Counted from the stretch's first letter, positions 43,448-63,964 are shown. The stretch is DNA of 64,000 nt from Vitiosangium sp. GDMCC 1.1324 (GCF_003044305.1 NZ_PZOX01000005.1:195493-259492); one strand, 5' to 3'. The notes: generated by a model from the sequence alone, not told the origin. A program made the numbers and translations.

Positions 43448-43897
43448 CTACTCCTCGGCAGGGCTCTCCAGCACCTTGGCTACGCGAATCAGCCGCTTCA
43501 CCTCCCCGGGGCTCCACCCGCGAAGCATGCGCACGAACTGCCGCAGCTCGGGTGAGAGGCTCCCCTCGGGGGTGGGCTGCGCCAGCGTAGCGGCCACGTC
43601 CGTGCGGCTGAGCTCGAGCAGCACGTCGGCGGAGATTCCGAGCGTGAGGGCCAGCTTCCGCAGCGTGGGTACGGACGGCATCATGCCTCCGCGCTCAATG
43701 CGTCCGTAGACTTCGGGGGCGAGGCACGTCTGCTTCGCCACCTGGGCCTGGGTCAGCCCCAGCCGCTCGCGGACCGTGCGGCAGACTTCACCGAGAGACT
43801 TCTGAAGGTGTTCGAGTTCCATGGGTTGTCTCCACAGGGTTCCGGCCCGCCCGAGCGTTCCGGGGGTATTCGTCCTTTGCTGCTCGGCGCGGCTCAC
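43448..43897 (-). CDS. XRE-family helix-turn-helix regulator.
   Basis: LGEVCRTVRERLGLTQAQVAKQTCLAPEVYGRIERGGMMPSVPTLRKLALTLGISADVLL is a classic Cro/C1-type HTH. Confidence 0.55.
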   Translation of the reverse strand: MSRAEQQRTNTPGTLGRAGTLWRQPMELEHLQKSLGEVCRTVRERLGLTQAQVAKQTCLAPEVYGRIERGGMMPSVPTLRKLALTLGISADVLLELSRTDVAATLAQPTPEGSLSPELRQFVRMLRGWSPGEVKRLIRVAKVLESPAEE

Positions 43898-44298
43898 CTG
43901 GCGCGCGGCGCCCGCTTCCGGGCCTTCGCCGCGCGGGACTTCGCCACCATGGAGCGCGCCAGGGTGGCGAGCGCGGCGTGCTGCACCGGCGTCAACGTGC
44001 GAATTGTCCGGAGGAAGCGCCGCACCTCTGGGGTGTCATCCACTGCTTCGCTCGTCGGTACGAGCCAGGGTGGCGGCTGCTTCAACTGGAAGCCCAGCAG
44101 GGTGTTCGCATCCAGCTCCAGCGCGTCGCACAGCCGCAGCAGCGTGGGCACGCTGGGCAGCATTCGCGCCCGCTCGATGCGGCCGTAGACGGCAGCCGCG
44201 AGGTGAGTGCGTTCGGCCATCTGCGCCTGGGTGAGGCCCAGGCGCTGGCGGGTGTCCTTGGCTACCTTGGCGAGGTGGTGTTGCAGGGCCGTGGGCAT
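43894..44298 (-). CDS. XRE-family HTH regulator, paralogue 2.
   Basis: VAKDTRQRLGLTQAQMAERTHLAAAVYGRIERARMLPSVPTLLRLCDALELDANTLLG. It has a 4-nt overlap with the downstream paralogue. Confidence 0.55.
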   Translation of the reverse strand: MPTALQHHLAKVAKDTRQRLGLTQAQMAERTHLAAAVYGRIERARMLPSVPTLLRLCDALELDANTLLGFQLKQPPPWLVPTSEAVDDTPEVRRFLRTIRTLTPVQHAALATLARSMVAKSRAAKARKRAPRAR

Positions 44299-44310
44299 GA
44301 GCGCGCTCCC

Positions 44311-47302: not shown

Positions 47303-47779
47303 TGCTGCTCCTTGCCGGTGAGCGCCCAGGCCAAGTAGCCATCAGGCCGCAGCACCACGAGGGGTTGGAACTCCTGGACGCGCCGGCCCAGCTCGGCCCG
47401 GGGAACGGCCTCAGTCTTGAGCGTCACGTCGAGCAGCAACACGTCCGCCACAAGCCACGGGGCATATTCTGAGGCCTTGGGCGGAAAGAGGTGGAAGTGT
47501 AGCCGGAGCTGCTTGGCCTCCTGGGGAGACAAGTCCCGGCCCCTGGGCAGTAGCTCCGTGGGGAGCCCGGCCTTGAGCAGCAGGACGGCGAACTCGTCCA
47601 GGTCCGCGAGCGCATCCCGGGTGGTGGCATACGCCGCGGGCGGCGCGTTGCTGGCGCAGGCCAGTGGGCACAGGAGCACGAAGGAGAGCGCGGCCAACAG
47701 GCCCGGCAGGAGACGGGCGGGACGCGCGCAGACACGAGCCCCCTCCCGACGCGAAAGAATTTCGCTCGGCACGATGGCA
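47170..47779 (-). CDS. Hypothetical secreted/lipoprotein; start uncertain.
   Basis: A hydrophobic N-terminus with LLCPLACASN resembles a lipobox. The ORF has coding-like GC3 bias. Confidence 0.3.
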
Positions 47780-48102
47780 CCTCCGAAAACACATGATGTG
47801 AATTGAACTGACGACCAAACAGGTAGCACAGCCAAAATAGGAAGGGAAGCCCCGCCCAACCGCTTACGTCAGACACGCAGTCCAACCAATCAGAGCGGCA
47901 GAAGCCTGCTTTTGAGAGAGCAGCGAGCTCCTCGGCGATTTGGAATCGATAAGTAAGTCGGCATGCCCCAACCCAGGAAGTCACGCCGGAAATCTGGCGT
48001 GAGACAGGCGGCGGAACGAAGTCAGAGACAAGAACGCCAGCCGCCCGGAACACAGGCGCGGAGCACCTACGGCTCCGTGCACAGGACGCTGATTGGGCCG
48101 CC

Positions 48103-48680: not shown

Positions 48681-49388
48681 CTACCGGACCGACGCCAGCG
48701 GATTGAACGGGGGCCTCGGGCTGCACCGAGGCGGCGCAGGCGATAGACCCCCTCCTTTTTCGGACGGCATTTCATACTCAAGGCCCTGTCCGTCCCGAAC
48801 CTCCTCGTGTCGGGTGGGAAGGAAGAGCCCACAGCCCAGGTGACGGCGCCCACCCAGTCCCTGCGTTTGGAGGCGCAGGGAGTCCTCTGGCGCGAGGCCT
48901 CCCACCGTGAGGGCAAAGCCCACGACCTTTCTCCCCGCGATGGACAGGATGCGCCGTCGGCCCAGGGTCAGCGTCCCCTCGCAGCGCAGTTCCCTCAGGA
49001 ACTTGCGCGTGGAGAGCTCGAAGGTGGCGGCGTCCAACGCGTGCTTGAAGGTGACGAGCCGAGCGGACAGCGAGGGGGCTGCCGCCAGGGGGTGGATCTC
49101 AGGCCTTCCCAGGCGGACTTCCCGGCCCGCGAGGACGAGTGCACTGCACGCGAGCGGTAGGAAGAATGCGAGGGAATCCGCTGGACAGCGCAGACGCAGC
49201 GCGCCTCTTCCCAGGTGGAGGACCTGGGCATCGGCTCTCGTGCCACGCAGGGTGAAGACACCGACGTCATGGCGCTCGTGCAGCCCAGGAAGCCGACGGG
49301 AGAGTGCCGAGAACAGCAAGTAACCGTGATCGAGCGGCACCGGGCCGCCGCGCACGGGAAACAGAATATCGATGACAGGCGAAGTCAT
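48681..49388 (-). CDS. cas6: Cas6 crRNA-processing endoribonuclease (type III-associated).
   Basis: MTSPVIDILFPVRGGPVPLDHGYLLFSAL... has a C-terminal Gly-rich loop GLGGRRHLGCGLF (GhGxxxxxGhG). It overlaps the cmr6 stop by ATGA. It is the last gene of the cmr operon. Confidence 0.6.
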   Translation of the reverse strand: MTSPVIDILFPVRGGPVPLDHGYLLFSALSRRLPGLHERHDVGVFTLRGTRADAQVLHLGRGALRLRCPADSLAFFLPLACSALVLAGREVRLGRPEIHPLAAAPSLSARLVTFKHALDAATFELSTRKFLRELRCEGTLTLGRRRILSIAGRKVVGFALTVGGLAPEDSLRLQTQGLGGRRHLGCGLFLPTRHEEVRDGQGLEYEMPSEKGGGLSPAPPRCSPRPPFNPLASVR

Positions 49389-50512
49389 GCACGAAGCCTC
49401 GTGAGGAGCTCTTCGAGCCGTTGCTGCTCCTCGGGACGCTTGAGGTTCAGGTACTTCTTGAGGAGGCGCGCCGCCTCGAGCCGCTCCGGCTCCGTCAACG
49501 CCAGCAGTCGATTCACCCATTGCTGCTCCACCTGCTGGAACTGCTGTCGCTGGCCCACGGTGCGCGCTTTCTGCTCCTCCAACCAGGTCTTCAGTTCCAT
49601 CACGGCCGGAGTCTCCAGACTCTTGCCGGGTTGGAGGCCCGGTGTCTCCGGAACGAGCCGCCCGTACCCGGTCGCGGTCTTTCCTCCCAGGCCCCAGGAC
49701 TCCAACGCCTCGCCCACGTAACGGCCCGCCCGCTCCAGCAGCACTCGCTCGCCCCTCGCCTCCAGTACCACCAGGAAGCGATTGCCCGGCGCCACCGTCA
49801 AGAATGACACGGGGTTGGGATCGTCGAAGTCCACGGGCCATTCCCCGCCCCCGCTCTCGTAATACCCACGCTGATGCACGGTGAGCACGTCTCGCGCCAA
49901 CATCGGCCCACTCCCCTTCTCCGGCGGGATCCACAGCGCATCGTGGAAGGTCACCTCCCCCTGGCTGCCTTTCTCCGATACCTCGTCCACCTCCGGAGCA
50001 CCGAACAGCCGTCGGAACACCCGGCCTGGAACCCGGCTCGGACGAGAGAGCTCCCAGGTCGTCCCACGGAAGGGCTCACGCTCGGGCTCCTCAATATCGG
50101 GATCCGGGCCATACACCGTCTGAACGTAATGGGCCGTGAGTCCCTTGAGGGCCGAGCCGGGCAGCACGGGCACTCCCCAGGTATGGTGCAGCGTCAGCCC
50201 GACTCCGGTGGCCGACGAGGTGCCGTGCCCCACGAGGATCCGGCTCTCCGCCCGTACGATGAAGCAGAGGGTGTCTGGACCCTGGAAGGATTCCTTCCAA
50301 CGGCGATAGGCCTGTGCATAGCGAGGCGGCTCGCGGCACCGGGACAGAAGCTCCAGCCATCGAGTCCGAAGTTCCAGCCACCGCTTGCGCTCGACGGGGT
50401 CTTCTCGCAACAGGGCCAGGGGCGCACACCGGGTGTACCCCAGGCCCACGTGGCTCGGCACCTGCCCGGGGGTCTCCGGGCACCGGTCCTCACCGTCCGC
50501 CTTCAGCCACAT
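49385..50512 (-). CDS. cmr6: Cmr6 (Cas7-group RAMP).
   Basis: ILVGHGTSSATGVGLTLHHTWGVPVLPGSALKGLTAHYV is the RAMP G-rich loop GSALKG. Start choice among in-frame Met codons is uncertain. Confidence 0.6.
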   Translation of the reverse strand: MWLKADGEDRCPETPGQVPSHVGLGYTRCAPLALLREDPVERKRWLELRTRWLELLSRCREPPRYAQAYRRWKESFQGPDTLCFIVRAESRILVGHGTSSATGVGLTLHHTWGVPVLPGSALKGLTAHYVQTVYGPDPDIEEPEREPFRGTTWELSRPSRVPGRVFRRLFGAPEVDEVSEKGSQGEVTFHDALWIPPEKGSGPMLARDVLTVHQRGYYESGGGEWPVDFDDPNPVSFLTVAPGNRFLVVLEARGERVLLERAGRYVGEALESWGLGGKTATGYGRLVPETPGLQPGKSLETPAVMELKTWLEEQKARTVGQRQQFQQVEQQWVNRLLALTEPERLEAARLLKKYLNLKRPEEQQRLEELLTRLRA

Positions 50513-50903
50513 GGCTTCGCTCCTCCTGCGTGAAGGTGGCCTGCACCGCGCGCCGGAACCACACCAACAGCTGAAGCAACTCACGGGTCGCCAGCATGTA
50601 GTCGCTCATCTCGAGCCGCCGCACCGCATCTGGAAGCTTCACGCCCGCCGTCCGGGGAGGCCCGGGGAGCAGTGCGTCGGCGAGATCCTCAAGGAGCCGT
50701 CCCACGGGCTTGTCGTGCTTCGCCTTCTCGGACTCCAGCTCACGCTCGAGGAAGGCCAGCGCCGCTGCCAGGCCATTGCGCAGCACGGCGGCGCCGAGGG
50801 AGTGGACGTGCATCGCATAGTCCGCGCGCTCGCCCGGGGGCACGCGCATGACCCGCTCGTAGGCGTGGAGGGCTCGCGTCTGCTGCCGCGTCCGGTGGGT
50901 CAT
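50490..50903 (-). CDS. cmr5: Cmr5 small subunit.
   Basis: MTHRTRQQTRALHAYERVM...HSLGAAVLRNGLAAALAFLERE is a 137-aa all-alpha protein. It shows an ATGA overlap with the cmr4 stop and a GGAGG-like ribosome-binding site. Confidence 0.6.
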   Translation of the reverse strand: MTHRTRQQTRALHAYERVMRVPPGERADYAMHVHSLGAAVLRNGLAAALAFLERELESEKAKHDKPVGRLLEDLADALLPGPPRTAGVKLPDAVRRLEMSDYMLATRELLQLLVWFRRAVQATFTQEERSHVAEGGR

Positions 50904-51811
50904 GGCCGTGCCTCCCTCTGAGCGCCGGGCCATGCCGCCAGCCGGCACCTGCCCCGGCCCACGGTGGCCTTGCCACCCAGTTGCAACAGCGTTGTCCCCT
51001 TCAGCGCCCGGTCGAGCACCTCCGTCGCGCTGAGATCGGTGCCCCGGCGCAAGCTACGTCCCGCGGCCAGCACCCCTACCAGGAGGGTCTCCGCGGGCAG
51101 GCTCTCTTCCTGCCAGAGCGCTCCCTGCACCACCGTGCCGGTCCCGGGGTCGATTCGCACGCGCGTCTCCACCTGGGTGGCCGTCTCCAGGAGGAAGCTC
51201 ATCGTCTCGTCGTCTACCACGGCGAAGCGCTCGCGCAGCCCTTCCTCTTCCTCGGGCCAGGTCCGAGCGAGGAAGCGTGCCCAGGCTTCCACCGCGGGCT
51301 CCACCTGGGTGTCCAGGTCCAGATCCTCCAGCAAAAGCCTGCGGTGCTTGGGCGACACGGTGATGTTGCCCTCCCCCACCCGTGCGCCAGTCACGGGCAG
51401 CCGCTTCATGCGCCCCGGTAAGCCCTCGAGGCCCGTCAGGTCCCTGCGCGCCAGTTCCAGCAGGAGCGGCGAGGACACCCACGCGAAGGCGCCCAGGAAG
51501 CTGCGCACGGGCAGCGCCACCAGCCGCGCATCTCCCACCACCAGCGCACCGGCATGGTCTCCTTCCCGGGTCTCGTCTCCCGCCGCGCCGCTCGTCTCGC
51601 GCAGAGGGCCGAAGAGGGCCTCCCGCTCCTCCGAAGGCAGGTCCCGGTGTGCATCGCGCAGCACGCCCTTGAGCGAAGAACCGGGGACGAAGGGGATGTT
51701 CGTCGCACGCAACCTCGCGATGGGTAGGTCGATGAGGCCCACGCTCTGCCCCGTCCCCGCGTGCAGGGGAGAGAGGGCGTGCAGCAGGTAGGGCCGGGTC
51801 TCCATGCTCAT
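50900..51811 (-). CDS. cmr4: Cmr4 (Cas7 backbone subunit).
   Basis: MSMETRPYLLHALSPLHAGTGQSVGLIDLPIARLRATNIPFVPGSSLKGVLRDAH shows the Cmr4 thumb and G-rich loop. It overlaps the cmr3 stop by ATGA. Confidence 0.7.
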   Translation of the reverse strand: MSMETRPYLLHALSPLHAGTGQSVGLIDLPIARLRATNIPFVPGSSLKGVLRDAHRDLPSEEREALFGPLRETSGAAGDETREGDHAGALVVGDARLVALPVRSFLGAFAWVSSPLLLELARRDLTGLEGLPGRMKRLPVTGARVGEGNITVSPKHRRLLLEDLDLDTQVEPAVEAWARFLARTWPEEEEGLRERFAVVDDETMSFLLETATQVETRVRIDPGTGTVVQGALWQEESLPAETLLVGVLAAGRSLRRGTDLSATEVLDRALKGTTLLQLGGKATVGRGRCRLAAWPGAQREARP

Positions 51812-52983
51812 GTGTTCATCTCCTCGGGGTTCCAATGCCCGGGCAGTACCCGCCCCAGGCCCTCCTCGCGGCCACTGCCCCAGGGGGCCAGCCAGAGAGT
51901 GCTCAGCGCGGTGAAGGGAAGTCCGTCCACCCGCTCGAAGAAATAGACCGAGCCCGCGGGCACCAGCCGCCGGGTGGCGCGAGCCCTCCGCTGGACCATG
52001 TCCCAGGTGGACAGTTCCAGGGGCCGGTTCACCAGTGCCGCGCGGAGCACCACCTGCCCTTCGACTCCCGGCAAGGTGCCGACCCACGCGGGACATCCCT
52101 CGTACTCGGCACGCTCCAGACCATCCGGCAGCCAGCCGCGTTGGAATTGCGCGGGCGTGGCCAGAATCAATCGCAGCCCGGGCGAGCGCTCCGGCAGTCC
52201 CCTGGGCGCCGCGAAGAGCCCGGGGGACACACGCTCCGCCAGCGTCAACCGCCGCTTGCCACCCAGTCCCAGCGGTCCCCAGGGAAAGCCCGGAGCCTCG
52301 GTGGGCAGCGTGCACTCCAGGCCCAGGGCCCACTCGCGGGCTCCGTTACCGAGGGGTTCGCGGCAGAGCATCTCCAGGATGGGCGTCTGGTACAGCATGC
52401 CGGGCTCCGCGGTCTGGGTGTCGGGGTTCAAGGTCACCCGCACATCGACACGCCAGGGAGGACCGGACTGGCCGCGAGATTTTGGAACCTCGCCGCGCAG
52501 CCAGCCGCTCAGGGCCTCCTCCGTCCAGAACGGCGGCAGGGGCCTCGGCTTGCCCGGCGGGAGCACGGGGCGCCACAGGGCCTCCAGCGCCGCATCGTCC
52601 TCCGTGCCCAGGGTCGCGACGCCGCGCGAAGGCCGCCGGGGGAGAAGTCGCTGGAGACCTCCGTCCACGGCCAGGGCATCCGCCGACACGGGCCACATGC
52701 GGTGCTCGGGGGCGAACTCCTCCCCGAGGGGCCGCAGGAGGGCCAGCACGGCTCCGAGGGCAACTTCCCGGGTCTCCCGCTCCCACTGTTCGGGAGATAG
52801 GGTGCGCGAGGAGCGGGCCATGAGGGACTGGCCCCAGGCCGCCCGCAGCGCGCCACGAATCGTGGAGGGGGGAGGCCAGGGGTGGGAATGGCTCCGCCCG
52901 ACATCGCTGGTGTACCAGCCACGGCCGTCCTTGCAGAACAGCCCATCACGCGGCAACAGGGCCAGGCACGCCGTCGTGCTCAT
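51808..52983 (-). CDS. cmr3: Cmr3 (Cas5-group RAMP).
   Basis: The N-terminal motif is MSTTACLALLPRDGLFCKDGRGW (L.PrD.lf.rDgRpf). It is 391 aa and overlaps the cmr2 stop. Confidence 0.6.
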   Translation of the reverse strand: MSTTACLALLPRDGLFCKDGRGWYTSDVGRSHSHPWPPPSTIRGALRAAWGQSLMARSSRTLSPEQWERETREVALGAVLALLRPLGEEFAPEHRMWPVSADALAVDGGLQRLLPRRPSRGVATLGTEDDAALEALWRPVLPPGKPRPLPPFWTEEALSGWLRGEVPKSRGQSGPPWRVDVRVTLNPDTQTAEPGMLYQTPILEMLCREPLGNGAREWALGLECTLPTEAPGFPWGPLGLGGKRRLTLAERVSPGLFAAPRGLPERSPGLRLILATPAQFQRGWLPDGLERAEYEGCPAWVGTLPGVEGQVVLRAALVNRPLELSTWDMVQRRARATRRLVPAGSVYFFERVDGLPFTALSTLWLAPWGSGREEGLGRVLPGHWNPEEMNT

Positions 52984-54803
52984 GCTGCACCTCGGGTATC
53001 ACCCCGCGGCCGGAGGGTGGCGCGCGAGAGCAACTCCGCCAGGAACACGCGCTCCGCCCAGGCCTCCACCTGGACGTGGAGCTCCTCCAGGGTTCCTTCT
53101 TCCTTCAAGTCCAATCCCGCCTGCTGGGGTGTGAGTCCCGCCCCGGGAGTACCTGCCTCCACGCGGGCCAGCACCCGCCGCACCTCACCCACCAGCATGG
53201 GCCGCCAACGCGCCTCGTCCTGAGGCGAACCAGCGTGGCGGGGAATGCGCCGCAGGGCCGTGGACACATCACGGACCTTCGTCATGGGCAGCGTGCCCGC
53301 CTTCCGCAGGGTGATGGTGTCCTCGAGCGCCTTCACGGGCCCGTCGGGCCAGCGCTGCCGCCAGGCGTGCTCACGGCCGGAGCGCAGCCGTGCCAGGAGC
53401 GCGAAACCATTCCGGTCCTCGCCCTTGGCCAACTGCTCCGCGCGCCGCCCGAGGTCCAGCAAATCCCCGAGGCTCTCCAGGACATGGCCCACCCCCAGCC
53501 CCACCGAGAGCGTGGGCGCGTTCACTCCCGCCCGGCTCTGGAGCTCCTGCTCCATGGCAGCGGCGAAGGCCCGCGACAACTCGGCGGCGCAGCTCAGCGC
53601 GTCCGGAAGACAGACGAAACCCAGCACGTCATCTCCACCGGCGTAGACCAGCACGCCCCGGTGCCGCTCCTCGAGGATGCGCCGGGCCTCGGTGGCGAAG
53701 TCGGAGAGCGTGCGAGACAACGACTGGTGCGCGGCGGGGCCATGAGAGGCCAGGGCATGAAGCGTCTCTCCCATCTTGTCGCCGTCCGCCACGAGGCAGG
53801 CCACATAGGGGAAGGGCTCACCCAGGGTGGCCAGCAAGGGCCGCACGAAGTCCTGGCCGAAGCGCTCCGCGTCCTGGCGCCCCATTCCCTGCTCCTCCAG
53901 GTACGTGCTCCACCGGCCGGGCAGCAGGAGCTGTGCGTCGAAGGGGAAATCACGCACCCACTCTCGGTCCCCCGCCTGGACTGGCGTCAGGACTCCTTGG
54001 TCGCGCAGCCGCACACACTCCCGGCGGAGCCTCTCCATCGCCGGGGGCTGGGTGTGCTTCGCGAGCGCCGTATAGGCGGCGAGGCCGATGGTCGGGACGG
54101 GGATGAACTGCCCGGGCTGTCCGCCCGTGCGCTTGAGCAGACCGATGGCGTCCAGTTCCTCACGCTGGCCGATACGGAAGCGGCGCCAGTCGCCCCCCTC
54201 ACGCCTCCCCTCCCGCAGCACGGACTCGCGTGCACCATCCAGGCTGGACTTGTGGCGGCCGCCCCGCTGGTGTTGCCACGGAGAGAATGGGCGCAGCCGC
54301 TTGCGCTCGGCCAGCGCGGCTTCCGCGAGACGTAAGGCCCTGGGGTACTCCTCCGGCGTGGTGAAGGGACACCAGGCGGCATGGAACTCCAGGAGGGTGT
54401 CCAGTTGCTCCTGGGCGGTGCCGAGAGCGCCGGGGTCCACGAGCTGGGGATGCTTGCGCCAGACCTCCAGGCCCCATTCGCGCAGCCGTGTGCGCGCCGC
54501 CTCCCGCGCAGCCCGCGCCACCTCGCGAGGCTCCCCCTGCCGCACGAGCACCAAGAGCTTGTTGGGGACGCTGGGGGCGGCCTCCTGCCCATCCACGAAG
54601 GCGGGGAAGATGAGCTCGGCCCGGAGCCGCTGGGCGGTGCGGGCGGCCTCGAGGCTCAGCTCGCTGAGCACATGGCTGCCGAACCACAGGTCCCGGGTGC
54701 GCCGGGCCTGGGCGATGAAATCCTGCACGGGACCGAGGCTCATGAGGAGCAGGTGCGCGGTGCTCACGTCGACTCCTTCACGCCACTGAAACCCTTCACC
54801 CAC
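52980..54803 (-). CDS. cmr2: Cmr2/Cas10 short form, lacking an HD domain but with an intact GGDD cyclase motif.
   Basis: The N-terminus reads LLLMSLGPVQDFIAQARRTRDLWFGSHVLSELS, as in the Cmr2 N-terminus. The Palm2 motif VLVYAGGDDVLGFV is present. At 607 aa there is no room for an HD nuclease domain. Confidence 0.75.
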   Translation of the reverse strand: MGEGFQWREGVDVSTAHLLLMSLGPVQDFIAQARRTRDLWFGSHVLSELSLEAARTAQRLRAELIFPAFVDGQEAAPSVPNKLLVLVRQGEPREVARAAREAARTRLREWGLEVWRKHPQLVDPGALGTAQEQLDTLLEFHAAWCPFTTPEEYPRALRLAEAALAERKRLRPFSPWQHQRGGRHKSSLDGARESVLREGRREGGDWRRFRIGQREELDAIGLLKRTGGQPGQFIPVPTIGLAAYTALAKHTQPPAMERLRRECVRLRDQGVLTPVQAGDREWVRDFPFDAQLLLPGRWSTYLEEQGMGRQDAERFGQDFVRPLLATLGEPFPYVACLVADGDKMGETLHALASHGPAAHQSLSRTLSDFATEARRILEERHRGVLVYAGGDDVLGFVCLPDALSCAAELSRAFAAAMEQELQSRAGVNAPTLSVGLGVGHVLESLGDLLDLGRRAEQLAKGEDRNGFALLARLRSGREHAWRQRWPDGPVKALEDTITLRKAGTLPMTKVRDVSTALRRIPRHAGSPQDEARWRPMLVGEVRRVLARVEAGTPGAGLTPQQAGLDLKEEGTLEELHVQVEAWAERVFLAELLSRATLRPRGDTRGAA

Positions 54804-56092
54804 CCCAGAAACGCTTCCTCGAGGTTCTCCGCGACGAGGGGCGCGTAGAGCGCGGTATCCCCCGGTGCCAGGAGCCGGTCGAAGGGCGCCGCGGAACCCC
54901 GGACGGGCTCACGCGCCTTGCCCATCAGCACGACCTGGCCCTTCTCGGGCCACGCGCGGCGAAGCCACAGCGCGATGGGGACGAAGGAGCCATCCGCCAG
55001 GGGCATGGCCTTGACGATCAACGGAGAAGCGAACCGCTCGCGGACCCGCGTTCCATCATGCCAGCGCAGCTCGACGTCCGGAGGTTCGGCATAGGGCGCT
55101 CCCCTGCCCCCCGGCGTCTTGGGCCGGGCGGTGCGTTGGAAGCGAATGGCCAGAGGCAGGCCGAACCCCGCGCGAGGCCAGGCCACGGCCTTGCCGGCGC
55201 AGGCGGGCCGGGGCGGGTGGGCCCAGGAAGTCCCCTTCGGAGGGGAAAACAACTGGCGGACCTTGTCGGCCTCCGGCCAGTAGGAGCGTCCCGGTCGCTC
55301 TGGCCTGGGCTCCCGGGCGGTTGCACTGCGGCCCTCGCCCTTCTTCCCGGGCGAGGCCACACGCGAGCCCTGGGGAAGACGTCCCTCGCCCTGGCGGAAC
55401 TCCCGCAGCCAGCCCAGCGCCACCTCCCAGGCATCATCGGCGCCCGGCCGCGAGGCGCCGTAGAGCAATCGAGCCCCCCGCAACAGGGGCACCTGTTTGG
55501 CCCCCCCCGGAGGGAGCGCGCCGAACAGGGGCAGCTCCGGGAAGAGCCGCGACCACTCCTCGCGCGTGGGCTGCCGAGGCAACCACGCCGCCGCGTCGTC
55601 CACGACGGTGAGCGCACCGAGCCCCCGGCGGGTGCGACTTCCATATCCCCCCCAGAGCACCCAGGCCCGGAGAGCGCCTTCCACCTCGGAGAAGCGCTCC
55701 GCCGGGGCGAGGAGGTGGAGGTGGAAACACAGCGAGGAGTGCCAGCGTGGGGCGAGGGGCTTGCTCGCGACCCAGAGGGCATAGGCGCCCCGGGCTCTCT
55801 GATCGATGCGCCCATCGTCCCGGGACACGGTTCGCGGCTCCACCTCCACACGCACTTCCACGCGAGAGCGCGTCCCCTGCTCCTTGCCCATCCCACCCCA
55901 GAGCTCGCGCTCCCGGCGGGCCAGCTCCGCGGGCGTGGCGCACGCGTGCCCATGGAGCGCCCGCCACCAGAAGCGCAGGTGGCCTCGAATCGACGGCGCG
56001 CGAAGGGGGTCCAGCTCGTCCAATTCCCGGGCGGCGGACGAGCCACCGAGGATGGGCGTGATCGTCTTCAGCCGCACCCGCAGCGACTTCAT
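54764..56092 (-). CDS. cmr1: Cmr1 (Cas7-group RAMP).
   Basis: The start is MKSLRVRLKTITPILGGSSAARELDE...PSIRGHLRFWWRAL after a GGAGG ribosome-binding site. This is the classic Cmr1 RAMP start. The 773-aa ORF 54764..57085 is an upstream frame extension. Confidence 0.65.
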   Translation of the reverse strand: MKSLRVRLKTITPILGGSSAARELDELDPLRAPSIRGHLRFWWRALHGHACATPAELARRERELWGGMGKEQGTRSRVEVRVEVEPRTVSRDDGRIDQRARGAYALWVASKPLAPRWHSSLCFHLHLLAPAERFSEVEGALRAWVLWGGYGSRTRRGLGALTVVDDAAAWLPRQPTREEWSRLFPELPLFGALPPGGAKQVPLLRGARLLYGASRPGADDAWEVALGWLREFRQGEGRLPQGSRVASPGKKGEGRSATAREPRPERPGRSYWPEADKVRQLFSPPKGTSWAHPPRPACAGKAVAWPRAGFGLPLAIRFQRTARPKTPGGRGAPYAEPPDVELRWHDGTRVRERFASPLIVKAMPLADGSFVPIALWLRRAWPEKGQVVLMGKAREPVRGSAAPFDRLLAPGDTALYAPLVAENLEEAFLGWVKGFSGVKEST

Positions 56093-56151: not shown

Positions 56152-57963
56152 TCACGTGGACCGGCTCCTTCCCGGGGCGTCGAGCAAGGTGCGGTGTTGG
56201 TCGAACAGCCCCTCGAAGAGCAGCCGCAGCTCGTCCTGGATTTGCTCCCGAGAGCACTCGTCCCAGCGGCGGAGCGCGAGCAGCAGCGCACGCACCCAGC
56301 CGGGCTCCTTCGTGCGAACCAGCTCCCTGCGGTAATAGAGGGCCAGTGTCAGGGTGTCGTTCTTGTCCAGCCCTTCCAACTTCACGCGCAGTTGGCTGTA
56401 GCTCTCGTGGGGATCCGGGAAGGTGGGCAGCCCCGCGACCTCGATGAACACCCGCTCCAACGCCGGCTGCTCCTCCCTGGCCAGAGCGGCCGTGGAGAAC
56501 CGGCAAGCATGGAAGAGCCAGATGAGGTAGCGCCGCAACCGCCGCTCGGGAAGGGTCTGGATGGGGCGCTCCGGCTCGAAGACGCGAACGCTCTCCAACG
56601 CGTTCCAGATGATGTTCGCGAGGGCGTGTGATGGAGGCTGGGCGGTCGCGGCCCGATGGCTCCGCCGCCAGGCCAATGCCACCTCGACGGAGACCACGTC
56701 CGCGTCGTAATCCACCGCCTCGAGCACCCACCCCGTGCGGCCACTGCCGCTGTAGCTGTAGGAGGTCAGGCCTCGCTGCTGGACATGGTAGGCCTCGTGG
56801 ACGAGGAGCAGCCGGATGCACTCGTCCCAATCTTCTTTCGAGCCCAGGCGCTGGCGCAGGGCCCGGAAGCCCTCCAGCAGGTCGACGGGGAACTTCCAGG
56901 TTCCGGCCTGATAGCGGAACAGGGGCGTCCTCTCCGTCGCGGGCGTGGTGTCGATTTGACTGTCCAGGAGGACCCGCCCCCCGAGCCGCTCGACCAGTGT
57001 CTGTTGCTCGGGTTGGCGCAGCCACTCGACCAACTGCTGGTGGATGCCGATCACCTTCTTGAGCTCTTCCTGGATCTCCTGCCACTGCTTGGAGGTGAGC
57101 GTCTCCTCCCGTGCTGCGGCCAGACGGCGCCGAGGGCTGATCTGATGGACGGCGAGATACTGGCCCTGCTCGCGATTGAAGTGGTGCAACCCCAGGGGGT
57201 GCTGGGTCTGGGCGTTGATGGCGGTCCCCAGCGCGGCGGCGAGGCTGCCGGGACAGTCCATGGCCAGGAGCACCGATCCGGCGCCCTCCAGCCGCTCGTG
57301 GAGGGTGTCGAGCACGGTGCGGAATTGCTCCACCGCCCGCGAGACCTCGCCAGGGTTCTGCAGGGCCCGCTCCGAGGTGCCTCGTACGGGCCGCAGGCAG
57401 ACCGTGGCCAGGATCTCCATGGGGTGGCGTGCCTTGAACTGCGCGAGCGCCGTGTCACGAATGGGGTTGGTGACCTCGACGATGAGCGCCACGTGCCCAC
57501 GGCCCTCCTGCCGCGCGGCGGGAAGACCCTCGACGGTGAAGTAGGGCTCCGGGGTGGAGGGATGGGATCGGTCCGCCATGAGCGACCAGGAACCATCCTC
57601 CCGCGACTGCTGATAGACATACAGCCGCCGGCGCGGCAGACACCACGCCAGGTGCAGCATCAACACCAGGGGCGCGCACCCGAACAGGTGGACGGGCAGG
57701 TCGAGCCCCAGCTCGCGCTCCCGGGCCAGGAGCGCCTCGGCGAACCGCTCGTTCTCATCGAAGGCCCAGCCCCAGTCCTGCTCCCGCTGGGCACGGACGA
57801 GCGTGTCCTTGTTGTACTCATGCAATACGCAGGACGCGACGTCCCGGTCCCCCTCGAAGCCACTGTGCTTCAACGCCTCGCGCGCGGTGTTCTCGGCCAC
57901 GGGGCGGTCGTGCTCGTAGCGAAGGATGAGGGCCTGGGTCCTGGGTGTCAGGGCAATGACCAT
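56152..57963 (-). CDS. Large type III-associated accessory protein of unknown function. It is a candidate cyclic-nucleotide sensor/effector (SAVED/CARF-like region is a hypothesis) with a C-terminal HExxH...E zincin-like motif.
   Basis: The 603-aa ORF ends 60 nt upstream of cmr1 on the same strand and directly follows the SMODS nucleotidyltransferase gene. The C-terminal region contains LLVHEAYHVQQRG...WVLEAVDYD. There is no signal peptide. Domain assignment is not alignment-verified. Confidence 0.45.
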   Translation of the reverse strand: MVIALTPRTQALILRYEHDRPVAENTAREALKHSGFEGDRDVASCVLHEYNKDTLVRAQREQDWGWAFDENERFAEALLARERELGLDLPVHLFGCAPLVLMLHLAWCLPRRRLYVYQQSREDGSWSLMADRSHPSTPEPYFTVEGLPAARQEGRGHVALIVEVTNPIRDTALAQFKARHPMEILATVCLRPVRGTSERALQNPGEVSRAVEQFRTVLDTLHERLEGAGSVLLAMDCPGSLAAALGTAINAQTQHPLGLHHFNREQGQYLAVHQISPRRRLAAAREETLTSKQWQEIQEELKKVIGIHQQLVEWLRQPEQQTLVERLGGRVLLDSQIDTTPATERTPLFRYQAGTWKFPVDLLEGFRALRQRLGSKEDWDECIRLLLVHEAYHVQQRGLTSYSYSGSGRTGWVLEAVDYDADVVSVEVALAWRRSHRAATAQPPSHALANIIWNALESVRVFEPERPIQTLPERRLRRYLIWLFHACRFSTAALAREEQPALERVFIEVAGLPTFPDPHESYSQLRVKLEGLDKNDTLTLALYYRRELVRTKEPGWVRALLLALRRWDECSREQIQDELRLLFEGLFDQHRTLLDAPGRSRST

Positions 57964-58002
57964 GGGAAGGCTCCTGAAGAGGATGGGACCGCGAGGACGG
58001 AC

Positions 58003-58889
58003 TCAGGGCCCCCGCTGCCGGTAGAACTCGCCGAAGAGCTCCCGCAGGCGCCCGTGGGCCCGCGGAGGATCCGAGTCGCTCTCGTCCCTCGCGAGCCGCA
58101 CCTGTCTCGCCGCGCTCGCCAGCAACTGATGGGCCGCCGTCTTCTGGTTGGAGGTCATCCGCTCATCCACGGCGGGGCCCAGCCCGGCGGGATCCGGACA
58201 CGTCCCCAGCACCTTCTGGCTCAGGTGGGAGAAAAGCCTCTCCAGCCCGTCGAGGTAGTCCCCGGGGGGCGAGGGAAACGCGCTGTAGCTCATCACCTCC
58301 AGATGGAACGAGCCCAGGGGGCTGGACGGGTGATGTCGGTTCCAATGCTTGACGGCCTTGAGGAGCGGCTTGAGCTTCTTGCCTGCGGCCTCGTTGGCCT
58401 CCGTGCTCAGAGTCTGGTGGATGCGGGGATTGGTGGAGATCCATCGCCCCGTTTCCCGCTCGGGGATGAGGAAGGTGTCCCGCCCCGGCACCGAGAACGC
58501 GGGCACGACGTCGAACTCGTTTCCCGAGTCCGTGAAGCCGATGTGCACCGAGTGCTGCTGGAGGATCGGAAGGCTCTTGTTGGACCACTTGTCGTGAAGC
58601 GCCTGCTGGACCTGCTTGAGCGCATCATCCGCCGTCAGCCCCCCTGCGAGGTGAATCGGGGTGGATGAGAGGACATCTCCCCCAGCACGACGAAGATGTC
58701 GATGTCATGCAGTGGCCGGATAGCGGTGTGGCGGCTGTAGGAACCGGAGAGAAAGTCCGTCTTCGTGTTGAGCCGCTTCCGCAAGGCCTCGCGCACCAGG
58801 GTGTGCTGCCGGCTGACCTCGTCCCGCTGTCCCTGCGTCAATTCCAGGGACTGGATGAACTTCTCCAGGCCCTCACGCACGCTCCACAT
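58003..58889 (-). pseudogene. SMODS-type (CBASS cGAS/DncV-like minimal) nucleotidyltransferase interrupted by a frameshift at a G6 homopolymer. This is either a pseudogene or a sequencing indel.
   Basis: The N-fragment (58635..58889) carries the SMODS signature GSYSRHTAIRPLHDIDIFVVL. The C-fragment (58003..58548) continues with ...ADDALKQVQQALHDKWSN...SGNEFDVVPAF, the second acidic motif. The two fragments are out of frame around CAGGGGGGCTGA. One extra or missing G restores a single ~295-aa ORF. Confidence 0.6.
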
Positions 58890-58968: not shown

Positions 58969-59808
58969 TCAAGGCAGGAGGCTCAGGACGTCCGCCATGG
59001 AGGGGCGTTCCGGGGCCTTCTTGGCCAGCAGGCGAGCCAGCAGCGAGCGAAGGGCCACGGGCGCCACCCCCTCCAGGAGCTCCAGCGGGGGCGGCCGGGC
59101 CACATGACAGAACATCAGGCTTTGCTGCGCCTCGGCGATGAAGGGCGGGCGGCCCGTGAGCAACTGGAATCCGAGAATTCCGAGCGAGTAGACATCGGCC
59201 CGGTCATCCACTGTCTTGGAACGAGTCCACTGCTCGGGGGCCCTGTACTCCCCGGTCCCTAGGAGCGCGCTCCCCGCCGTCGAGACCGGGAGTGCGGCGA
59301 GCCCGCTCCCGGTGGCGAGCCTCTTGGCGAGCCCGAGGTCGGCGAGCTGGACCTTCCACGCCCCCGGCTCCCGCTGGGAGACCAGGATGTTGGCGGGCTT
59401 CAGGTCCCGGTGAACGAGGCCCCGCGCATGCAACAGGGCCAGGACCTCCGCCAGTTGGCGGAGCACCTGGACGCAGTCGCGAACCGCGAGGCGGCCTCCC
59501 TCATGGACGAGCGCATGGTGGAGATCTTCCGGTTGCCACGCCAGGACCATGAAGGGACGGCCCTCCAGGAGCACTCCGGATGCCTGGGCACGGACCAGGT
59601 GCGGGTGCCGGAGCTCCTGGAGCGTCCGCGCCTCATTGAGGAAGCGGGCCACCACCTCGGGGTGGAGGCACCACTCCGGACTCAACACCTTCACCGCTAC
59701 GAACTCGCCCGAAGTGGCGTGCCGCCCCGCGTAGACCTCACTCGTGGCGCCCACCGCCACACAGCGCACGATGAGGTACTCACCCACGCATGTGCCAGCT
59801 GCCAGCAT
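58969..59808 (-). CDS. Small Ser/Thr protein kinase (catalytic domain only).
   Basis: YLIVRCVAVGATSEVYAG...AVKVL...HRDLKPANILV...ADLGLA...GTGEYRAPE. The in-frame N-terminal extension to 60216 is probably not translated, because the ECF sigma gene occupies that region in another frame. Confidence 0.55.
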   Translation of the reverse strand: MLAAGTCVGEYLIVRCVAVGATSEVYAGRHATSGEFVAVKVLSPEWCLHPEVVARFLNEARTLQELRHPHLVRAQASGVLLEGRPFMVLAWQPEDLHHALVHEGGRLAVRDCVQVLRQLAEVLALLHARGLVHRDLKPANILVSQREPGAWKVQLADLGLAKRLATGSGLAALPVSTAGSALLGTGEYRAPEQWTRSKTVDDRADVYSLGILGFQLLTGRPPFIAEAQQSLMFCHVARPPPLELLEGVAPVALRSLLARLLAKKAPERPSMADVLSLLP

Positions 59809-59819
59809 CGAGGGCTCCG

Positions 59820-60626
59820 TCAGCTCGAGGCGGAAGGCTGAAGGGCGCGCAGCTTCTCCAGCCAGTGCAGCAGCCCCCGAAGCTCCTCGGCGCACTCCGG
59901 ATAGCCCGCGGCGAAGGCCTCGGGCTCCAGGGGTCTCCCCTCCTCGCGCCGTCTGAAATAGGCGGCCAGGGCCGCATCCACCCGGTTGCGGGAGAGGACC
60001 GCATCGGGATTCTCCTCGGACTCCTCTTCCGCCGTGCCTTCCATGCGCGCACGGAGGGCCCGCAGACCCCGCTGCAGCAGCGACTCCACGGCTTCCTTGG
60101 AGCGGCCGAGTCGCTGCGCGATGCCTCCCACCGTCGAGTCCTGGAGGTAGTAGAGCGACAGGGCTTCGCGCTGGGCGTCGGGGAGCTCGTAGAAGTGCGT
60201 CAACAATCGACGCCACTCCTCCTGGTGGGAGGAGACCTGGCTCGGGCTGCGCTGGGGAGCGGGCAGGCCCTGGGCTTCGGAGCTGTCCAGGGGGAGCGCT
60301 CCCCCGTCATCCCGCTTCTGGCTGCCCGCCTTGCGTAGCATGTCCACCCAGCGCGAGTGGAGCACCTGCTCCAGCCAGACCCGCCATTCTCCCTCGGCCG
60401 TGCCCCGGAAGGAGGCGAAGCGCTGGAACGCCCCCAGCGCCGCCTCCTGGGCGACATCCGAGGGCCGAATTCCTCCCGGCGGCGAGCGCCCAATGCGCCG
60501 GGCCGCCCACCTGTCCAGATCGGACTGGCTGCGGCGGAGCAATTCCTCCCAGGCGCCCTGCTCCCCCTCTCGCACCCGGTGCAGCAGCGCCTCGATGGAC
60601 AACTCAGACAGGATGGATGAGCTCAT
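59820..60626 (-). CDS. ECF-type sigma-70 family factor with a C-terminal extension.
   Basis: Region 2 reads LLRRSQSDLDRWAARRIG...DVAQEAALGAFQRF. Region 4 reads PDAQREALSLYYLQDSTVGGIAQRLGRSKEAVESLLQRGLRALR. An ATGA overlap with the upstream kinase-STAND gene is present. Confidence 0.6.
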   Translation of the reverse strand: MSSSILSELSIEALLHRVREGEQGAWEELLRRSQSDLDRWAARRIGRSPPGGIRPSDVAQEAALGAFQRFASFRGTAEGEWRVWLEQVLHSRWVDMLRKAGSQKRDDGGALPLDSSEAQGLPAPQRSPSQVSSHQEEWRRLLTHFYELPDAQREALSLYYLQDSTVGGIAQRLGRSKEAVESLLQRGLRALRARMEGTAEEESEENPDAVLSRNRVDAALAAYFRRREEGRPLEPEAFAAGYPECAEELRGLLHWLEKLRALQPSASS

Positions 60627-63600
60627 GGGCAGCCCTCGAACACGAAGCGTATATCTTCTCCATCCCTGTCCTTGAACTCCCTGGCCAGGGCGCATCGCGC
60701 GGTGTGCAGGCGCGTGGCCTGTTCCCCGTCGCCCATGAGCGCCTCCTGTCCGGCCACAGCGCGAAGCCACACCAGGGCCTGGCGTTTGCCCAGGGGCTCC
60801 CCTTCCCTCAACCGCTCGCCCAATTCCACCGCCTCCTGGTAGTTCCGCTCCGCCTCCCCATACTGGCCCCGGGCGGCCTGGAACGAGGCCACGTCCACGA
60901 GGACCCAGGCGAGCACCCACCGGCTGTATTGATCCCCCGCCGGAGCATCATGGAAGCTGCTCCGTGCCAGGCGCAACGCCCGGTCGAGGAACCCCCGCGC
61001 CGCGTCTGGCTCGCCCGCCGCACGCGCCACGTTCCCGCGCATGCCGAGCACCTGGGCGAGGAGGGCTTTGTTATAGGACTCGCCGTTCTGTTCGTGGAGC
61101 CGGGTGGCCTTGTCCAGGAGGTCGGCGGCGGCGTTCCACCTCCCCGCCGCGAGCTCGCACTCGGCCAGCTCGGAGTCACTGACCGCCAGGGTGCGCCGGT
61201 CGTCCACCGGGTCATCCGTCGCCACCTCGGGACGCTCCAGTCCCCGGACGGCTTCGGCGAAATGCTCGCAGGCCAGGTCGAGGTGCCCCCGCGCCTGTTC
61301 CACCTTCCCGCGCTTGGAGTGCTCGAGGGCCACCAGCCGCGACAGCCTCCCATCGTCAGGCCGATCGGCGAGGGCCGCGCGCAGTTCCTCTCGAGCCTCG
61401 TCCAGGAACAGGCTGGCTCGTGCCAGGGTTCCATCATGGAAGGCGAGGTCCGCCTGCCGATGGATGAAACGGACGGCCACGCGCCGCACTTCGAGACTCT
61501 CGCGTTGCTGGGGCGTCAGCCCGGCCAGGGACTTACGAAAGCCTTCCAACGTGGGCTCGCGCAACCGCAGCGTGTACGGCAGCCAGCTGAGCCTCCAGTC
61601 CAGGTCCCCGGCGAACTCGTCCATCGTGTCGACGTACTGCCGCAGGGAGGCCTCCGCGAGCCGACGCTCGTGGCTCGCGAGGGCCGCGTAGAAGACGATG
61701 GCCAGGAGGGCCAGCCCCCCCGCGGCGGCGAGCAGCCCCCGGGTGAGCGTGCGCCGCCGCTCCAACCGCCGCGCCGCCTCCAGGAAGCGCTCCACTTCGG
61801 GGCTCTCTCGCGGGCTCCCGGCGCGGCGGGCGCGGGCAGGCGAAGCGCCGTCCCGGTAGTGGGTGAGCAGGGTGCCCGTGGGCAGTCCCTCCACCGGACA
61901 GCCCGCCTGGTGCCAGACATGCGCCGCGGCCTCCAGGTCCGCGTGGCGCTCCAGCCGCGTCCGCTCCTCCTCAATCCACGAGGCAATGGAGCGCACCCGG
62001 TACAGCAGCAGCTCGTGCGCCAGCTCGACGCGCTGCTCCGTGGCACTAGCTCCGCCCGACAGAAGCAACAACCGCAACCCCGCCGGAGCCTCCCGCGGGG
62101 TGCCATGGGACAGCCCGGAGAGCCGCAGCAGCACCTCCTCGGCCCGCGCATCGTCTCCCCCCGCGGCGAGCACCTCGCGCCGCGAGCGGGGGCGGCGGGT
62201 GTCGGGCACGCCCCGGCCCGTCCGCACCAGGGACAGAATCATCCCCCTGGCACGCTCGCGCCCCTCCTCTCCCAGACCGTCGAGCAGCGCCTCGGCCTGC
62301 TGGGCCAGGGCTCCCCCCACTCCCCCGAGCCGCTCGTAGTGCGCGTGGGTCAGTGGCGCGCCGCCGCTCAACGCCCACAGCGCCCGCAGCGCGTGCCCGA
62401 GCAGCGGCAGGCGGCCCGCCTCGCCCCGCGCGTCCTGCACCATACGCTCGGCCAGACCTTCGCCCAACCGGAGCCCCGCGCCGCGGGCCAGGCCCTGGAT
62501 GACCTGGGCCAGCGCGGCGGGCTCCATGGGCAGCAGGGGGAAGCGCGCGGCGTGCGGGAGGTGACGCGCCAGGGCCGGCACCTGCTCGATGCGATGCAGG
62601 AAGTCGGCGCGCACGCAGGTCAGCAGCCGCACCGGCGAGCCGGGGGCCTCGAGCGCGGCGCCCAGCAGCGCGTCCACCCATGGGCACTCCGCCGCGCCGA
62701 GCGTGAACAGCTCCTCCAGGGGCTCGAGCACCAGCAACAGGCGGCGCCCCTCGGGCGCATGGGCCGTGGCGAGGTCACGAAGGGCCCCGGCGTCCGCCCG
62801 CAGGGCGCGCTCCACCGTCTCCGCGCCCTCCCCCGCTCCCAGGCGAAGGGGGCCCGAGGCGAGCGCCCGGGCCAGGGCGCGGATCGGCTCGTCCCCCGGG
62901 CGAAGGCACACCACGCACCACTCCGGCGCCCGGGCGAGCCGGGGCAACAGGCCCGCCTGGAGCAACGAGGACTTGCCCACCCCGCTGGGCCCCTCCACCT
63001 GGAGCCACCGCCGCGGCCCCGTCTGGAGCTCTCCGAGCAGCGCGGACAGGCTCCGCAGCTCCTCGTCACGGCCGAAGAACAGCTCCGCCTGCGCCTCGGT
63101 GAAGGAGGCCAGTCCGGGAACGGGGCACGTCTCCGGATCGTCCTCCCACGCCCGGCCGAGCATGTCCTGGCAGCGCCGCATCGCCGGCCGCCGTGAGGGC
63201 TCCTTGGCGAGCATGGAGGCGATGAAGGCGCACAGGCCGCCGGGCAGCGAGGGGGCGAGCTCGCGCAGCGGGGGCGGCTCCTCGTGCACATGCGCGGAGA
63301 GGACCTCGACGGGGTCCTCGGACACGAAGGGCGTGCGGCCCGCGAGCAACTCGTAGAGCACCACGCCCAGGGCATAGACGTCCGCGCGGGAGTCCACGCG
63401 GGCGGCGCTCCGGAACTGCTCCGGCGCCATGTACGGGTAGGTGCCGATGAAGGCCGACTCGTGGGTATGGGCCAGGGTGGCGCCGAGCGCGTCCACCTCC
63501 ACGGGCGGCAGCTTGGCGATGCCAAAGTCCAGCAGCTTGACGCGGTGGCCAGCAAGGGCGCCTTCCCGGGGACACAGGAAGACGTTCTCCGGCTTCAGGT

Positions 63601-63964
63601 CCCGGTGGACGATGCCCCGGGCGTGGACCTGCGCCAGGATGTCCGCGAGTTGGGCGCCCACGTCCAGGGCGTCCCGGAGGGGCACCGGCTCCGCGTGCTG
63701 GCGCATCCACTCGCGCAGGGACAGCCCCGGGAGGTATTCCATGGCGAGGAACGCCGTGTCCGCCTGCCGCGCCGCGTGCAGGACCCGCACCACCCCCGGG
63801 AGCTCGAGCCGGGCCAGGACCTGGGCCTCCTGGAGGAATCGGGCAACGAGGTGCGGCTCCCGGGCCGCCTCGGGGGACAGGACCTTGAGGGCCACGCGTT
63901 GCCCCTGGGGCTCGAGCTCGGCGGCATAGACGCTCGCCATGCCCCCGCTGCCGAGCAGGTGCAA
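60623..63964 (-). CDS. Ser/Thr kinase - STAND (NB-ARC/AAA) NTPase - TPR repeat fusion protein. The N-terminus may extend to or beyond the window end.
   Basis: The kinase domain has LLHLLGSGGMASVYAA, ALKVL, HRDLKPENVFL, DFGIAK and APEQ. Then come FFGRDEELRSL...LQVEGPSGVGKSSLLQAGLL (Walker A) and C-terminal TPR-like helical repeats. A kinase-frame peptide GPYRLLHLLG precedes the first Met. Confidence 0.7.
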   Translation of the reverse strand: MHLLGSGGMASVYAAELEPQGQRVALKVLSPEAAREPHLVARFLQEAQVLARLELPGVVRVLHAARQADTAFLAMEYLPGLSLREWMRQHAEPVPLRDALDVGAQLADILAQVHARGIVHRDLKPENVFLCPREGALAGHRVKLLDFGIAKLPPVEVDALGATLAHTHESAFIGTYPYMAPEQFRSAARVDSRADVYALGVVLYELLAGRTPFVSEDPVEVLSAHVHEEPPPLRELAPSLPGGLCAFIASMLAKEPSRRPAMRRCQDMLGRAWEDDPETCPVPGLASFTEAQAELFFGRDEELRSLSALLGELQTGPRRWLQVEGPSGVGKSSLLQAGLLPRLARAPEWCVVCLRPGDEPIRALARALASGPLRLGAGEGAETVERALRADAGALRDLATAHAPEGRRLLLVLEPLEELFTLGAAECPWVDALLGAALEAPGSPVRLLTCVRADFLHRIEQVPALARHLPHAARFPLLPMEPAALAQVIQGLARGAGLRLGEGLAERMVQDARGEAGRLPLLGHALRALWALSGGAPLTHAHYERLGGVGGALAQQAEALLDGLGEEGRERARGMILSLVRTGRGVPDTRRPRSRREVLAAGGDDARAEEVLLRLSGLSHGTPREAPAGLRLLLLSGGASATEQRVELAHELLLYRVRSIASWIEEERTRLERHADLEAAAHVWHQAGCPVEGLPTGTLLTHYRDGASPARARRAGSPRESPEVERFLEAARRLERRRTLTRGLLAAAGGLALLAIVFYAALASHERRLAEASLRQYVDTMDEFAGDLDWRLSWLPYTLRLREPTLEGFRKSLAGLTPQQRESLEVRRVAVRFIHRQADLAFHDGTLARASLFLDEAREELRAALADRPDDGRLSRLVALEHSKRGKVEQARGHLDLACEHFAEAVRGLERPEVATDDPVDDRRTLAVSDSELAECELAAGRWNAAADLLDKATRLHEQNGESYNKALLAQVLGMRGNVARAAGEPDAARGFLDRALRLARSSFHDAPAGDQYSRWVLAWVLVDVASFQAARGQYGEAERNYQEAVELGERLREGEPLGKRQALVWLRAVAGQEALMGDGEQATRLHTARCALAREFKDRDGEDIRFVFEGCP

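Follow-up and report, generated by a model that had tools for sequence, protein, structure and literature searches.

A gene for a predicted SAVED-HExxH effector between a frameshifted CD-NTase gene and a type III-B CRISPR operon in Vitiosangium sp. GDMCC 1.1324

The window analysed here is a stretch of 64,000 nt from the genome of Vitiosangium sp. GDMCC 1.1324, a member of the Myxococcota (NZ_PZOX01000005.1:195493-259492). The gene under study (56152..57963, minus strand) encodes a putative immune effector of 603 amino acids (aa), with an N-terminal SAVED sensor domain and a C-terminal domain bearing an HExxH motif. The window has a GC content of ~68%, and long spurious open reading frames (ORFs) are therefore common in it. 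The codon-position GC of the effector ORF (0.705/0.449/0.882; third-position GC 0.88) is typical for real genes in the window, and the ATG chosen agrees with the aligned N-termini of the orthologues, so the 603-aa ORF of the preliminary description is a real gene on the minus strand. A plus-strand ORF overlapping it (56656..58668, 670 aa) has the mirror-image codon-position GC and was rejected as spurious. An NCBI entry of this strain, named only 'SAVED domain-containing protein', matches the translation with 100% identity, and an orthologue from Archangium violaceum (P0003) is 84% identical. A homologue search returned 61 other relatives, almost exclusively from Myxococcaceae or Archangiaceae, and a second word-index search with a diverse alignment recovered the same 62 myxobacterial proteins and added none; a tblastn search of the PLSDB plasmids gave no match. 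No transmembrane segment was evident in the hydropathy profile, whose maximum over 19 residues (1.85) falls within a strand/helix of the SAVED core in the structural model, in agreement with the cytoplasmic location proposed earlier.

The SAVED domain occupies aa 1-276 (57136..57963, minus strand). It was detected by Pfam (PF18145, 60.4 bits against a cutoff of 26.2, E=2.6e-16) and by NCBIfam (NF033611, 96.8 bits against a cutoff of 33, aa 11-276), and the best PDB sequence in a profile search of this region was SAVED-CHAT (8tl0, 1.4e-7). The modelled structure has the SAVED fold, composed of two fused CARF-like lobes. The nucleotide sensor of SAVED or CARF type suspected at the N-terminus is thus a genuine SAVED domain.

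A disordered linker (residues 279-286) precedes a separate domain (288-598), which gave a confident model when folded alone (predicted local distance difference test 90.4, predicted TM-score 0.90). This C-terminal domain, a putative zincin-like metallopeptidase (aa 288-603; 56155..57102, minus strand), has no Pfam model, and no Pfam family covers it in any member examined. The model begins with short strands (335-358), a helix (360-373), the HExxH-bearing helix (376-395) and a Gly-rich loop, and continues with a long helix (410-436), a helix containing ERRLRRYLIW, a small beta subdomain and two terminal helices. The HExxH motif (HEAYH, residues 389-393; codons at 56785..56799, minus strand) is found at the C-terminal end of its helix, while E415-x-x-D418-x-x-A421-D422 opens the long helix (codons at 56698..56721, minus strand) and comprises a candidate third metal ligand and a DxxAD motif.

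An HExxH is expected by chance 0.065 times in a protein of this composition, so conservation must decide whether the motif matters. H389, E390 and H393 were invariant in three alignments and across relatives only 17-36% identical, which rules out a coincidental motif. In 31 diverse members of that identity range the invariant residues were H389, E390, H393, D418, A421, D422, F462, R474, R478, L480 and W482, and the pattern HExxH-x22-26-DxxAD was carried by 246 of the 266 proteins retrieved, the rest being mostly fragments or SAVED-only relatives. The motif had first been described as HExxH followed about 25 residues later by a glutamate within LEAVDYD (414-420). The glutamate is indeed E415, 22 residues past H393 and 26 past H389, and is present in 29 of the 31 members (at least 90%), but strict invariance is found at the acids D418 and D422.

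The SAVED-HExxH family is not new. It is already catalogued by software as a predicted CBASS (cyclic oligonucleotide-based antiphage signalling system) effector: PADLOC-DB 2.0 entry PDLC02018, 'SAVED_peptidaseM48' (class Effector), matched the protein at E=3.2e-171 (aa 62-596 against profile positions 1-495 of 498), and PDLC00754, 'Effector / Peptidase', matched it at 2.4e-32. The claim of a new effector class was consequently overstated. The literature searches on SAVED-metallopeptidases or metalloproteases found no experimental work; such proteins are not mentioned in a 2022 review of CARF/SAVED effectors, nor are they among the known or new type III effectors in the survey of Hoikkala et al. 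2024. In an exhaustive profile search, with relatives counted as clusters at 50% identity, 502 clusters reached E<=1e-3 and 270 reached E<=1e-10. Most are 575-600 aa long with the same two-domain architecture. About 12 relatives (P0217, P0219-P0224, P0229, P0259, P0262-P0264; ~785-829 aa) bear an N-terminal CHAT (caspase-like) domain in addition to SAVED and the HExxH domain, which places two different putative proteases in one polypeptide.

The distant members, whose loci are canonical CBASS operons (type III, with HORMA and a Trip13-like AAA), confirm the role of the family as a CBASS effector, which is probably its ancestral one. The gene order was SMODS, bacHORMA_1, AAA, SAVED-HExxH and a second SMODS in Nitrospira lenta; AAA, Cap8, bacHORMA_2, SMODS, SAVED-HExxH and SMODS in a metagenome-assembled genome of Thermoanaerobaculia; and SMODS, SAVED-HExxH, SMODS-AGS_C, SAVED and SMODS in a third distant locus. 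Among the loci labelled L028 to L030, the first two combine SMODS, HORMA, a Trip13-like AAA and the SAVED-HExxH gene, and L030 contains SMODS and the SAVED-HExxH gene. In each a second SMODS/CD-NTase gene directly follows the SAVED-HExxH gene (L028, 9808-10719; L029, 9968-10672; L030, 9833-11119). The GS and DxD active-site motifs are kept in the L028 and L030 copies, and the L029 copy is N-terminally truncated and has DxD only. The possibility that these second genes are degenerate substrates was rejected, because with GS/DxD kept they look like active cyclases. Distant CBASS loci have two or three cyclases each, and multiple cyclases per locus are also seen in SAVED-CHAT relatives (Steens et al., bioRxiv 10.1101/2023.06.23.546230).

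Four genes lie upstream of the effector. The first encodes a 1113-aa Ser/Thr kinase-nSTAND1-TPR protein (60623..63964, minus strand; Pfam nSTAND1 9e-85, Pkinase 2.7e-43, and TPR), matched by PADLOC PDLC01088, 'C3a189 kinase' (1.4e-151), with an architecture that resembles STAND/NLR-type sensors. Its stop codon is overlapped by 4 nt by the start of a gene for an extracytoplasmic function (ECF)-type sigma factor (59820..60626, minus strand; Sigma70_r2, r4 and ECF models), whose C-terminal extension of ~70 aa is conserved among loci. Next is a stand-alone Ser/Thr kinase composed of the kinase domain only (58969..59808, minus strand; Pfam Pkinase 1.1e-37), followed by a CD-NTase gene, the CBASS oligonucleotide cyclase (58003..58889, minus strand; CBASS_cyclase_b), which ends 39 nt upstream of the effector. 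All genes from 63964 down to 48681 are on the minus strand, and no terminator-like site was found on the coding strand between 48700 and 64000.

The CD-NTase frame is broken into an N-terminal piece with GS...DID motifs (58635-58889) and a C-terminal piece (58003-58548). One extra G in a G6 homopolymer (58639..58644, minus strand; C6 on the plus strand) restores the frame, and the repaired 295-aa protein matched the whole NCBIfam CBASS_cyclase_b profile at 204.9 bits against a cutoff of 200. The gene was intact in 9/9 orthologues examined, and the 1-nt frameshift could be either a pseudogene mutation or a homopolymer sequencing error. The closest PDB sequences were 6p8u/6p82/6p8j (E=4e-36), which we take to be P. 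aeruginosa CdnD, and 6p80 (CdnC) was also matched. CdnD and CdnC are synthases of cyclic triadenylate (cA3).

Downstream, cmr1 (54764..56092, minus strand; RAMP/Cmr1 matches, N-terminus MKSLRVRL) begins 59 nt after the effector stop codon. The proposed position between a cyclase gene and cmr1 was therefore accurate, except that the cyclase frame is broken. The operon continues on the minus strand with cas10/cmr2 (52980..54767; TIGR02577 187.9 bits, Pfam Cas10-Cmr2_palm2 and Cmr2_N), which lacks an HD domain and has an intact GGDD cyclase motif (context VYAGGDDVLGF), and with cmr3 (51808-52983), cmr4 (50900-51811), cmr5 (50490-50903), cmr6 (49385-50512) and cas6 (48681-49388), all recognized by PADLOC and Pfam. 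Start/stop overlaps of 4 nt in the cmr/cas6 operon suggest translational coupling. No other CARF or SAVED gene was found within the cmr operon of the window.

For comparison, one genome per species was scanned, yielding 27 loci. The order kinase-STAND, sigma factor, kinase, CD-NTase and effector is conserved in nearly all close loci and also in paralogues of 24-27% identity from Archangium, Polyangia and Sorangium; about 18 loci show synteny of the effector with the two kinase genes and the sigma factor gene. In Myxococcaceae and Archangiaceae this five-gene module is usually located directly upstream of cmr1-6/cas6. Besides the window, 10 of the 15 informative close loci have Cmr genes 35-180 nt after the effector on the same strand, and every Cas10 orthologue of the Cmr-bearing loci retains GGDD. 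Arrays with a 36-nt repeat follow cas6 in three Myxococcus loci (L012, L013 and L015, at about 19700-21800). These arrays contain at least 28 copies of the repeat GTCGCGCTCGCCGTGATGCCGGAAGGCGTTGAGCAC, right after cas6.

Two loci have the effector and Cmr without the cyclase. In Myxococcus sp. Y35 (L012, complete genome), kinases, sigma factor, effector, Cmr and array are present, with no CD-NTase between kinase and effector (9854-9990), and in Myxococcus sp. RHSTA-1-4 (L007, 1-6000) only the effector and Cmr are found, with transposase-like genes or an insertion sequence element in place of the kinases, sigma factor and cyclase. Conversely, L008, L010 and L016 have cyclase and effector and no Cmr, and the same holds for L004 and L006 within the 3-5.5 kb of downstream sequence. 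The retention of the effector with Cmr and no cyclase, and with cyclase and no Cmr, suggests from gene content that it is a shared effector. By eye, the gene after the effector in the Corallococcus loci L008 (11773-13278) and L016 (12155-13000) looks like a Cap4-type nuclease-SAVED, which, if true, would place two SAVED effectors behind one cyclase; in L010 this place is taken by an AAA ATPase gene.

Other features of the window were also recorded. Just past cas6 there are three further Ser/Thr kinase genes on the minus strand (41063-43318, 44733-45911 and 45962-47302), two adjacent HTH_3/HTH_31 genes with weak PADLOC capH matches (43448-44310, minus strand), and an ORF (47170-47859) that matches the PADLOC candidate PDC-M17A (4.8e-37). 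Long in-frame tandem repeats were found at 20271-22299 (159 nt x 12.8), 26925-27807 (165 nt x 5.3) and 32121-34570 (126 nt x 11.5), the last inside a 1743-aa ORF (29607-34835), and these ORFs look like repeat-rich large proteins. The region 24000-26000 has a GC content of 0.587 against ~0.68 for the window, contains a 30-nt tandem duplication (AAACTTTAGGACTCATTGGCGTTGCAAACA, 24703-24762), and may be foreign or intergenic DNA.

The favoured explanation, to which we assign a probability of roughly 55%, is that the protein is a soluble SAVED-metallopeptidase effector of cyclic-oligonucleotide immunity, shared by CBASS and type III-B. Its SAVED domain would bind a cyclic oligoadenylate, most likely cA3, because the cyclase is CdnD-like and the nearest solved SAVED by sequence is that of SAVED-CHAT, reported as cA3-dependent (Steens et al., bioRxiv 10.1101/2023.06.23.546230). 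The signal would be supplied by the CdnD-like cyclase and probably by Cmr/Cas10 too. Ligand binding would then promote head-to-tail self-association, as in other SAVED effectors (self-association is reported for SAVED-CHAT and CalpL), and switch on the C-terminal domain. The active zincin-like domain, with HExxH on one helix and (E)xxDxxAD opening the next, would cleave proteins, leading to growth arrest, cell death or a regulatory response.

With the module placed upstream of Cmr genes that keep the Cas10 cyclase motif, the same effector is probably triggered by either signal generator, and the locus is probably a CBASS/type III-B hybrid. The loci that keep the effector with one generator alone are what a shared output would look like, and suggest it without being proof of it. 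As the distant CBASS loci have no kinases or sigma factor, these cannot be the general substrates of the family, and in its ancestral form the effector probably cleaved cellular targets so that growth stopped or the cell died. The myxobacterial effector may act specifically on the sigma factor or kinases inherited with it.

Several findings weigh against this reading. With 14 C-terminal domains as queries no Pfam peptidase family matched at E<=10, nor did any at E<=0.01 with 31 full-length members; a profile of the domain had no meaningful match among PDB sequences, and a Foldseek search against the PDB returned only noise (best E 2.3). The five related loci described above lack Cmr, distant loci lack the kinases and sigma factor, and the adjacency to Cmr could merely reflect clustering in defence islands. 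In the window itself the cyclase is frameshifted, and no CRISPR array was detected in the 64 kb by repeat finding or with the 36-nt repeat of the orthologous loci. With these two defects the locus may be partly inactive in this genome.

A somewhat unlikely alternative is that the protein is purely a type I CBASS effector of the adjacent CD-NTase and that the type III-B operon just shares a defence island with it and gives it no signal. It would fit the CBASS role of the family elsewhere, the five loci with cyclase and effector and without Cmr, and the known clustering of myxobacterial CBASS and type III-B in islands (PMC11506125). However, an intact effector gene stands directly upstream of cmr1 in L012 and L007 although both lack a CD-NTase, the gap between effector and cmr1 is short (35-180 nt) and on one strand, and the Cmr operon has an active-looking Cas10 (GGDD) and no other sensor or effector gene.

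It is rather unlikely that the C-terminal domain is not a peptidase and that HExxH/DxxAD holds a metal for another reaction, such as hydrolysis of nucleic acids or nucleotides (including cleavage of the signal), or has a structural or regulatory role. Such a reading draws on the lack of detectable sequence homology to any peptidase family and of significant structural neighbours, and on the fact that 'M48' in PADLOC is an unverified name, not reproduced by Pfam, PDB sequence search, hhalign or Foldseek. The hhalign comparison with E. coli HtpX aligned 12 columns at HExxH with 0.3% probability; it gave no support and was a weak test.

The gluzincin metallopeptidase first proposed keeps its conserved HExxH and finds no match to a peptidase family; likewise, the profile and structure searches that were to settle the architecture recovered SAVED but found nothing beyond noise in the PDB for the C-terminal domain. 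The ExxAD third-ligand motif of M48 and M56 peptidases resembles DxxAD, which is a lead only. Overall, the domain is probably a divergent zincin-like domain, with a zincin fold as such weakly supported and membership of M48 not established.

A third possibility, which we consider unlikely, is a specific regulatory protease of CalpL type that cleaves the C-terminal extension of the ECF sigma factor or a kinase and so reprograms transcription instead of killing. The synteny of sigma factor, small kinase and kinase-STAND in about 18 loci, including the distant paralogues, speaks for it, as do the conserved sigma factor extension and the precedents of CalpL/T/S and of PCaspase cleaving PCc-sigma. 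On the other hand, distant members from Nitrospira, Thermoanaerobaculia and elsewhere are encoded without a sigma factor or kinase gene in the vicinity, L007 has the effector without sigma factor or kinases, and the module contains no anti-sigma-like or PCaspase gene.

It is equally improbable that the locus is a decaying remnant with an intact effector no longer in use. In its favour are the frameshifted cyclase and the absence from the 64 kb of the array found after cas6 in orthologous loci. Against it, only one base in a G6 run is affected, which may be an error of sequencing, an array may be located in another part of the genome, and the effector, the sigma factor, both kinases and the full set of seven cmr/cas6 genes are intact and show strong codon bias.

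The effector belongs to a catalogued and biochemically unstudied family, and its informative hybrid context seems partly degraded in this genome. A more ambitious version of the shared-effector explanation would combine all its parts: a new zincin-like family activated through SAVED by cA3, the first metalloprotease among cyclic-nucleotide-activated immune effectors, whose myxobacterial copy is the common output of a CdnD-like CD-NTase and CRISPR RNA-guided Cmr and acts on substrates among the co-inherited ECF sigma factor and Ser/Thr kinases, thereby turning infection into a response by transcription or phosphorylation. It is doubtful that this holds as a whole.

As PADLOC already lists the family as a predicted CBASS effector, the present analysis mainly prioritises a known unknown for biochemistry and does not reveal a new system. 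For the C-terminal domain, no relative is solved or annotated. The myxobacterial loci constitute a natural experiment, with the effector accompanied by the cyclase only, by Cmr only, or by both. They speak to the question whether innate (CBASS) and adaptive (type III CRISPR) sensors can have one effector in common, and to the way in which kinases and an ECF sigma factor are wired into these systems.

Among known systems, the type III-B/CBASS hybrid of Haliangium ochraceum includes cA3-activated SAVED-CHAT, a sigma factor, a kinase and PCaspase, and related SAVED domains of other Myxococcota belong to CBASS-like operons that also encode cyclases, a kinase and a sigma-70 factor (Steens et al., bioRxiv 10.1101/2023.06.23.546230). 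The Haliangium SAVED-CHAT module (PDB 8tl0) is of the same kind as the Vitiosangium module, both having a SAVED effector, a sigma factor and a kinase beside type III-B. They differ in that the Haliangium effector domain is a CHAT cysteine protease instead of an HExxH domain, in that the Haliangium cluster has PCaspase and PCi, absent from the Vitiosangium locus, and in that the Vitiosangium module includes a CD-NTase and a kinase-STAND-TPR gene, unlike the Haliangium cluster. The Myxococcus xanthus DdvS/DdvA island likewise joins CBASS and type III-B Cmr under ECF sigma control (PMC11506125). In this respect it is like the Vitiosangium locus, but it encodes a CHAT-SAVED effector, DdvA as a transmembrane anti-sigma factor, and a type II CBASS, with no HExxH effector or kinase-STAND gene.

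The gluzincins, namely M13 (neprilysin/PepO) and M48 (BepA/HtpX/Ste24), have no sequence-profile similarity to the C-terminal domain. The ligand spacing of M48 is much longer than the ~25 residues of the effector, the effector is soluble and not membrane-anchored, and no gluzincin counterpart was identified for its invariant ERRLRRYLIW helix and C-terminal beta subdomain. The CBASS effectors Cap4, Cap5 and TIR-SAVED carry nuclease or NADase effector domains in contrast to the HExxH domain. CalpL, of a type III-B system, has a Lon serine protease domain and cyclic tetraadenylate (cA4) as ligand, and its substrate is the dedicated anti-sigma factor CalpT, which has no similar gene in the Vitiosangium locus; no dedicated partner of the PCaspase/PCi or CalpT kind was found there, the only companions of the effector being the kinase-STAND protein, the ECF sigma factor and the kinase. 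CalpL/T/S sets a precedent in which a SAVED protease acts on a sigma-factor partner. CalpL and SAVED-CHAT have already shown that cyclic-nucleotide immunity can have a proteolytic output, to which a metal-dependent version would add a third catalytic class.

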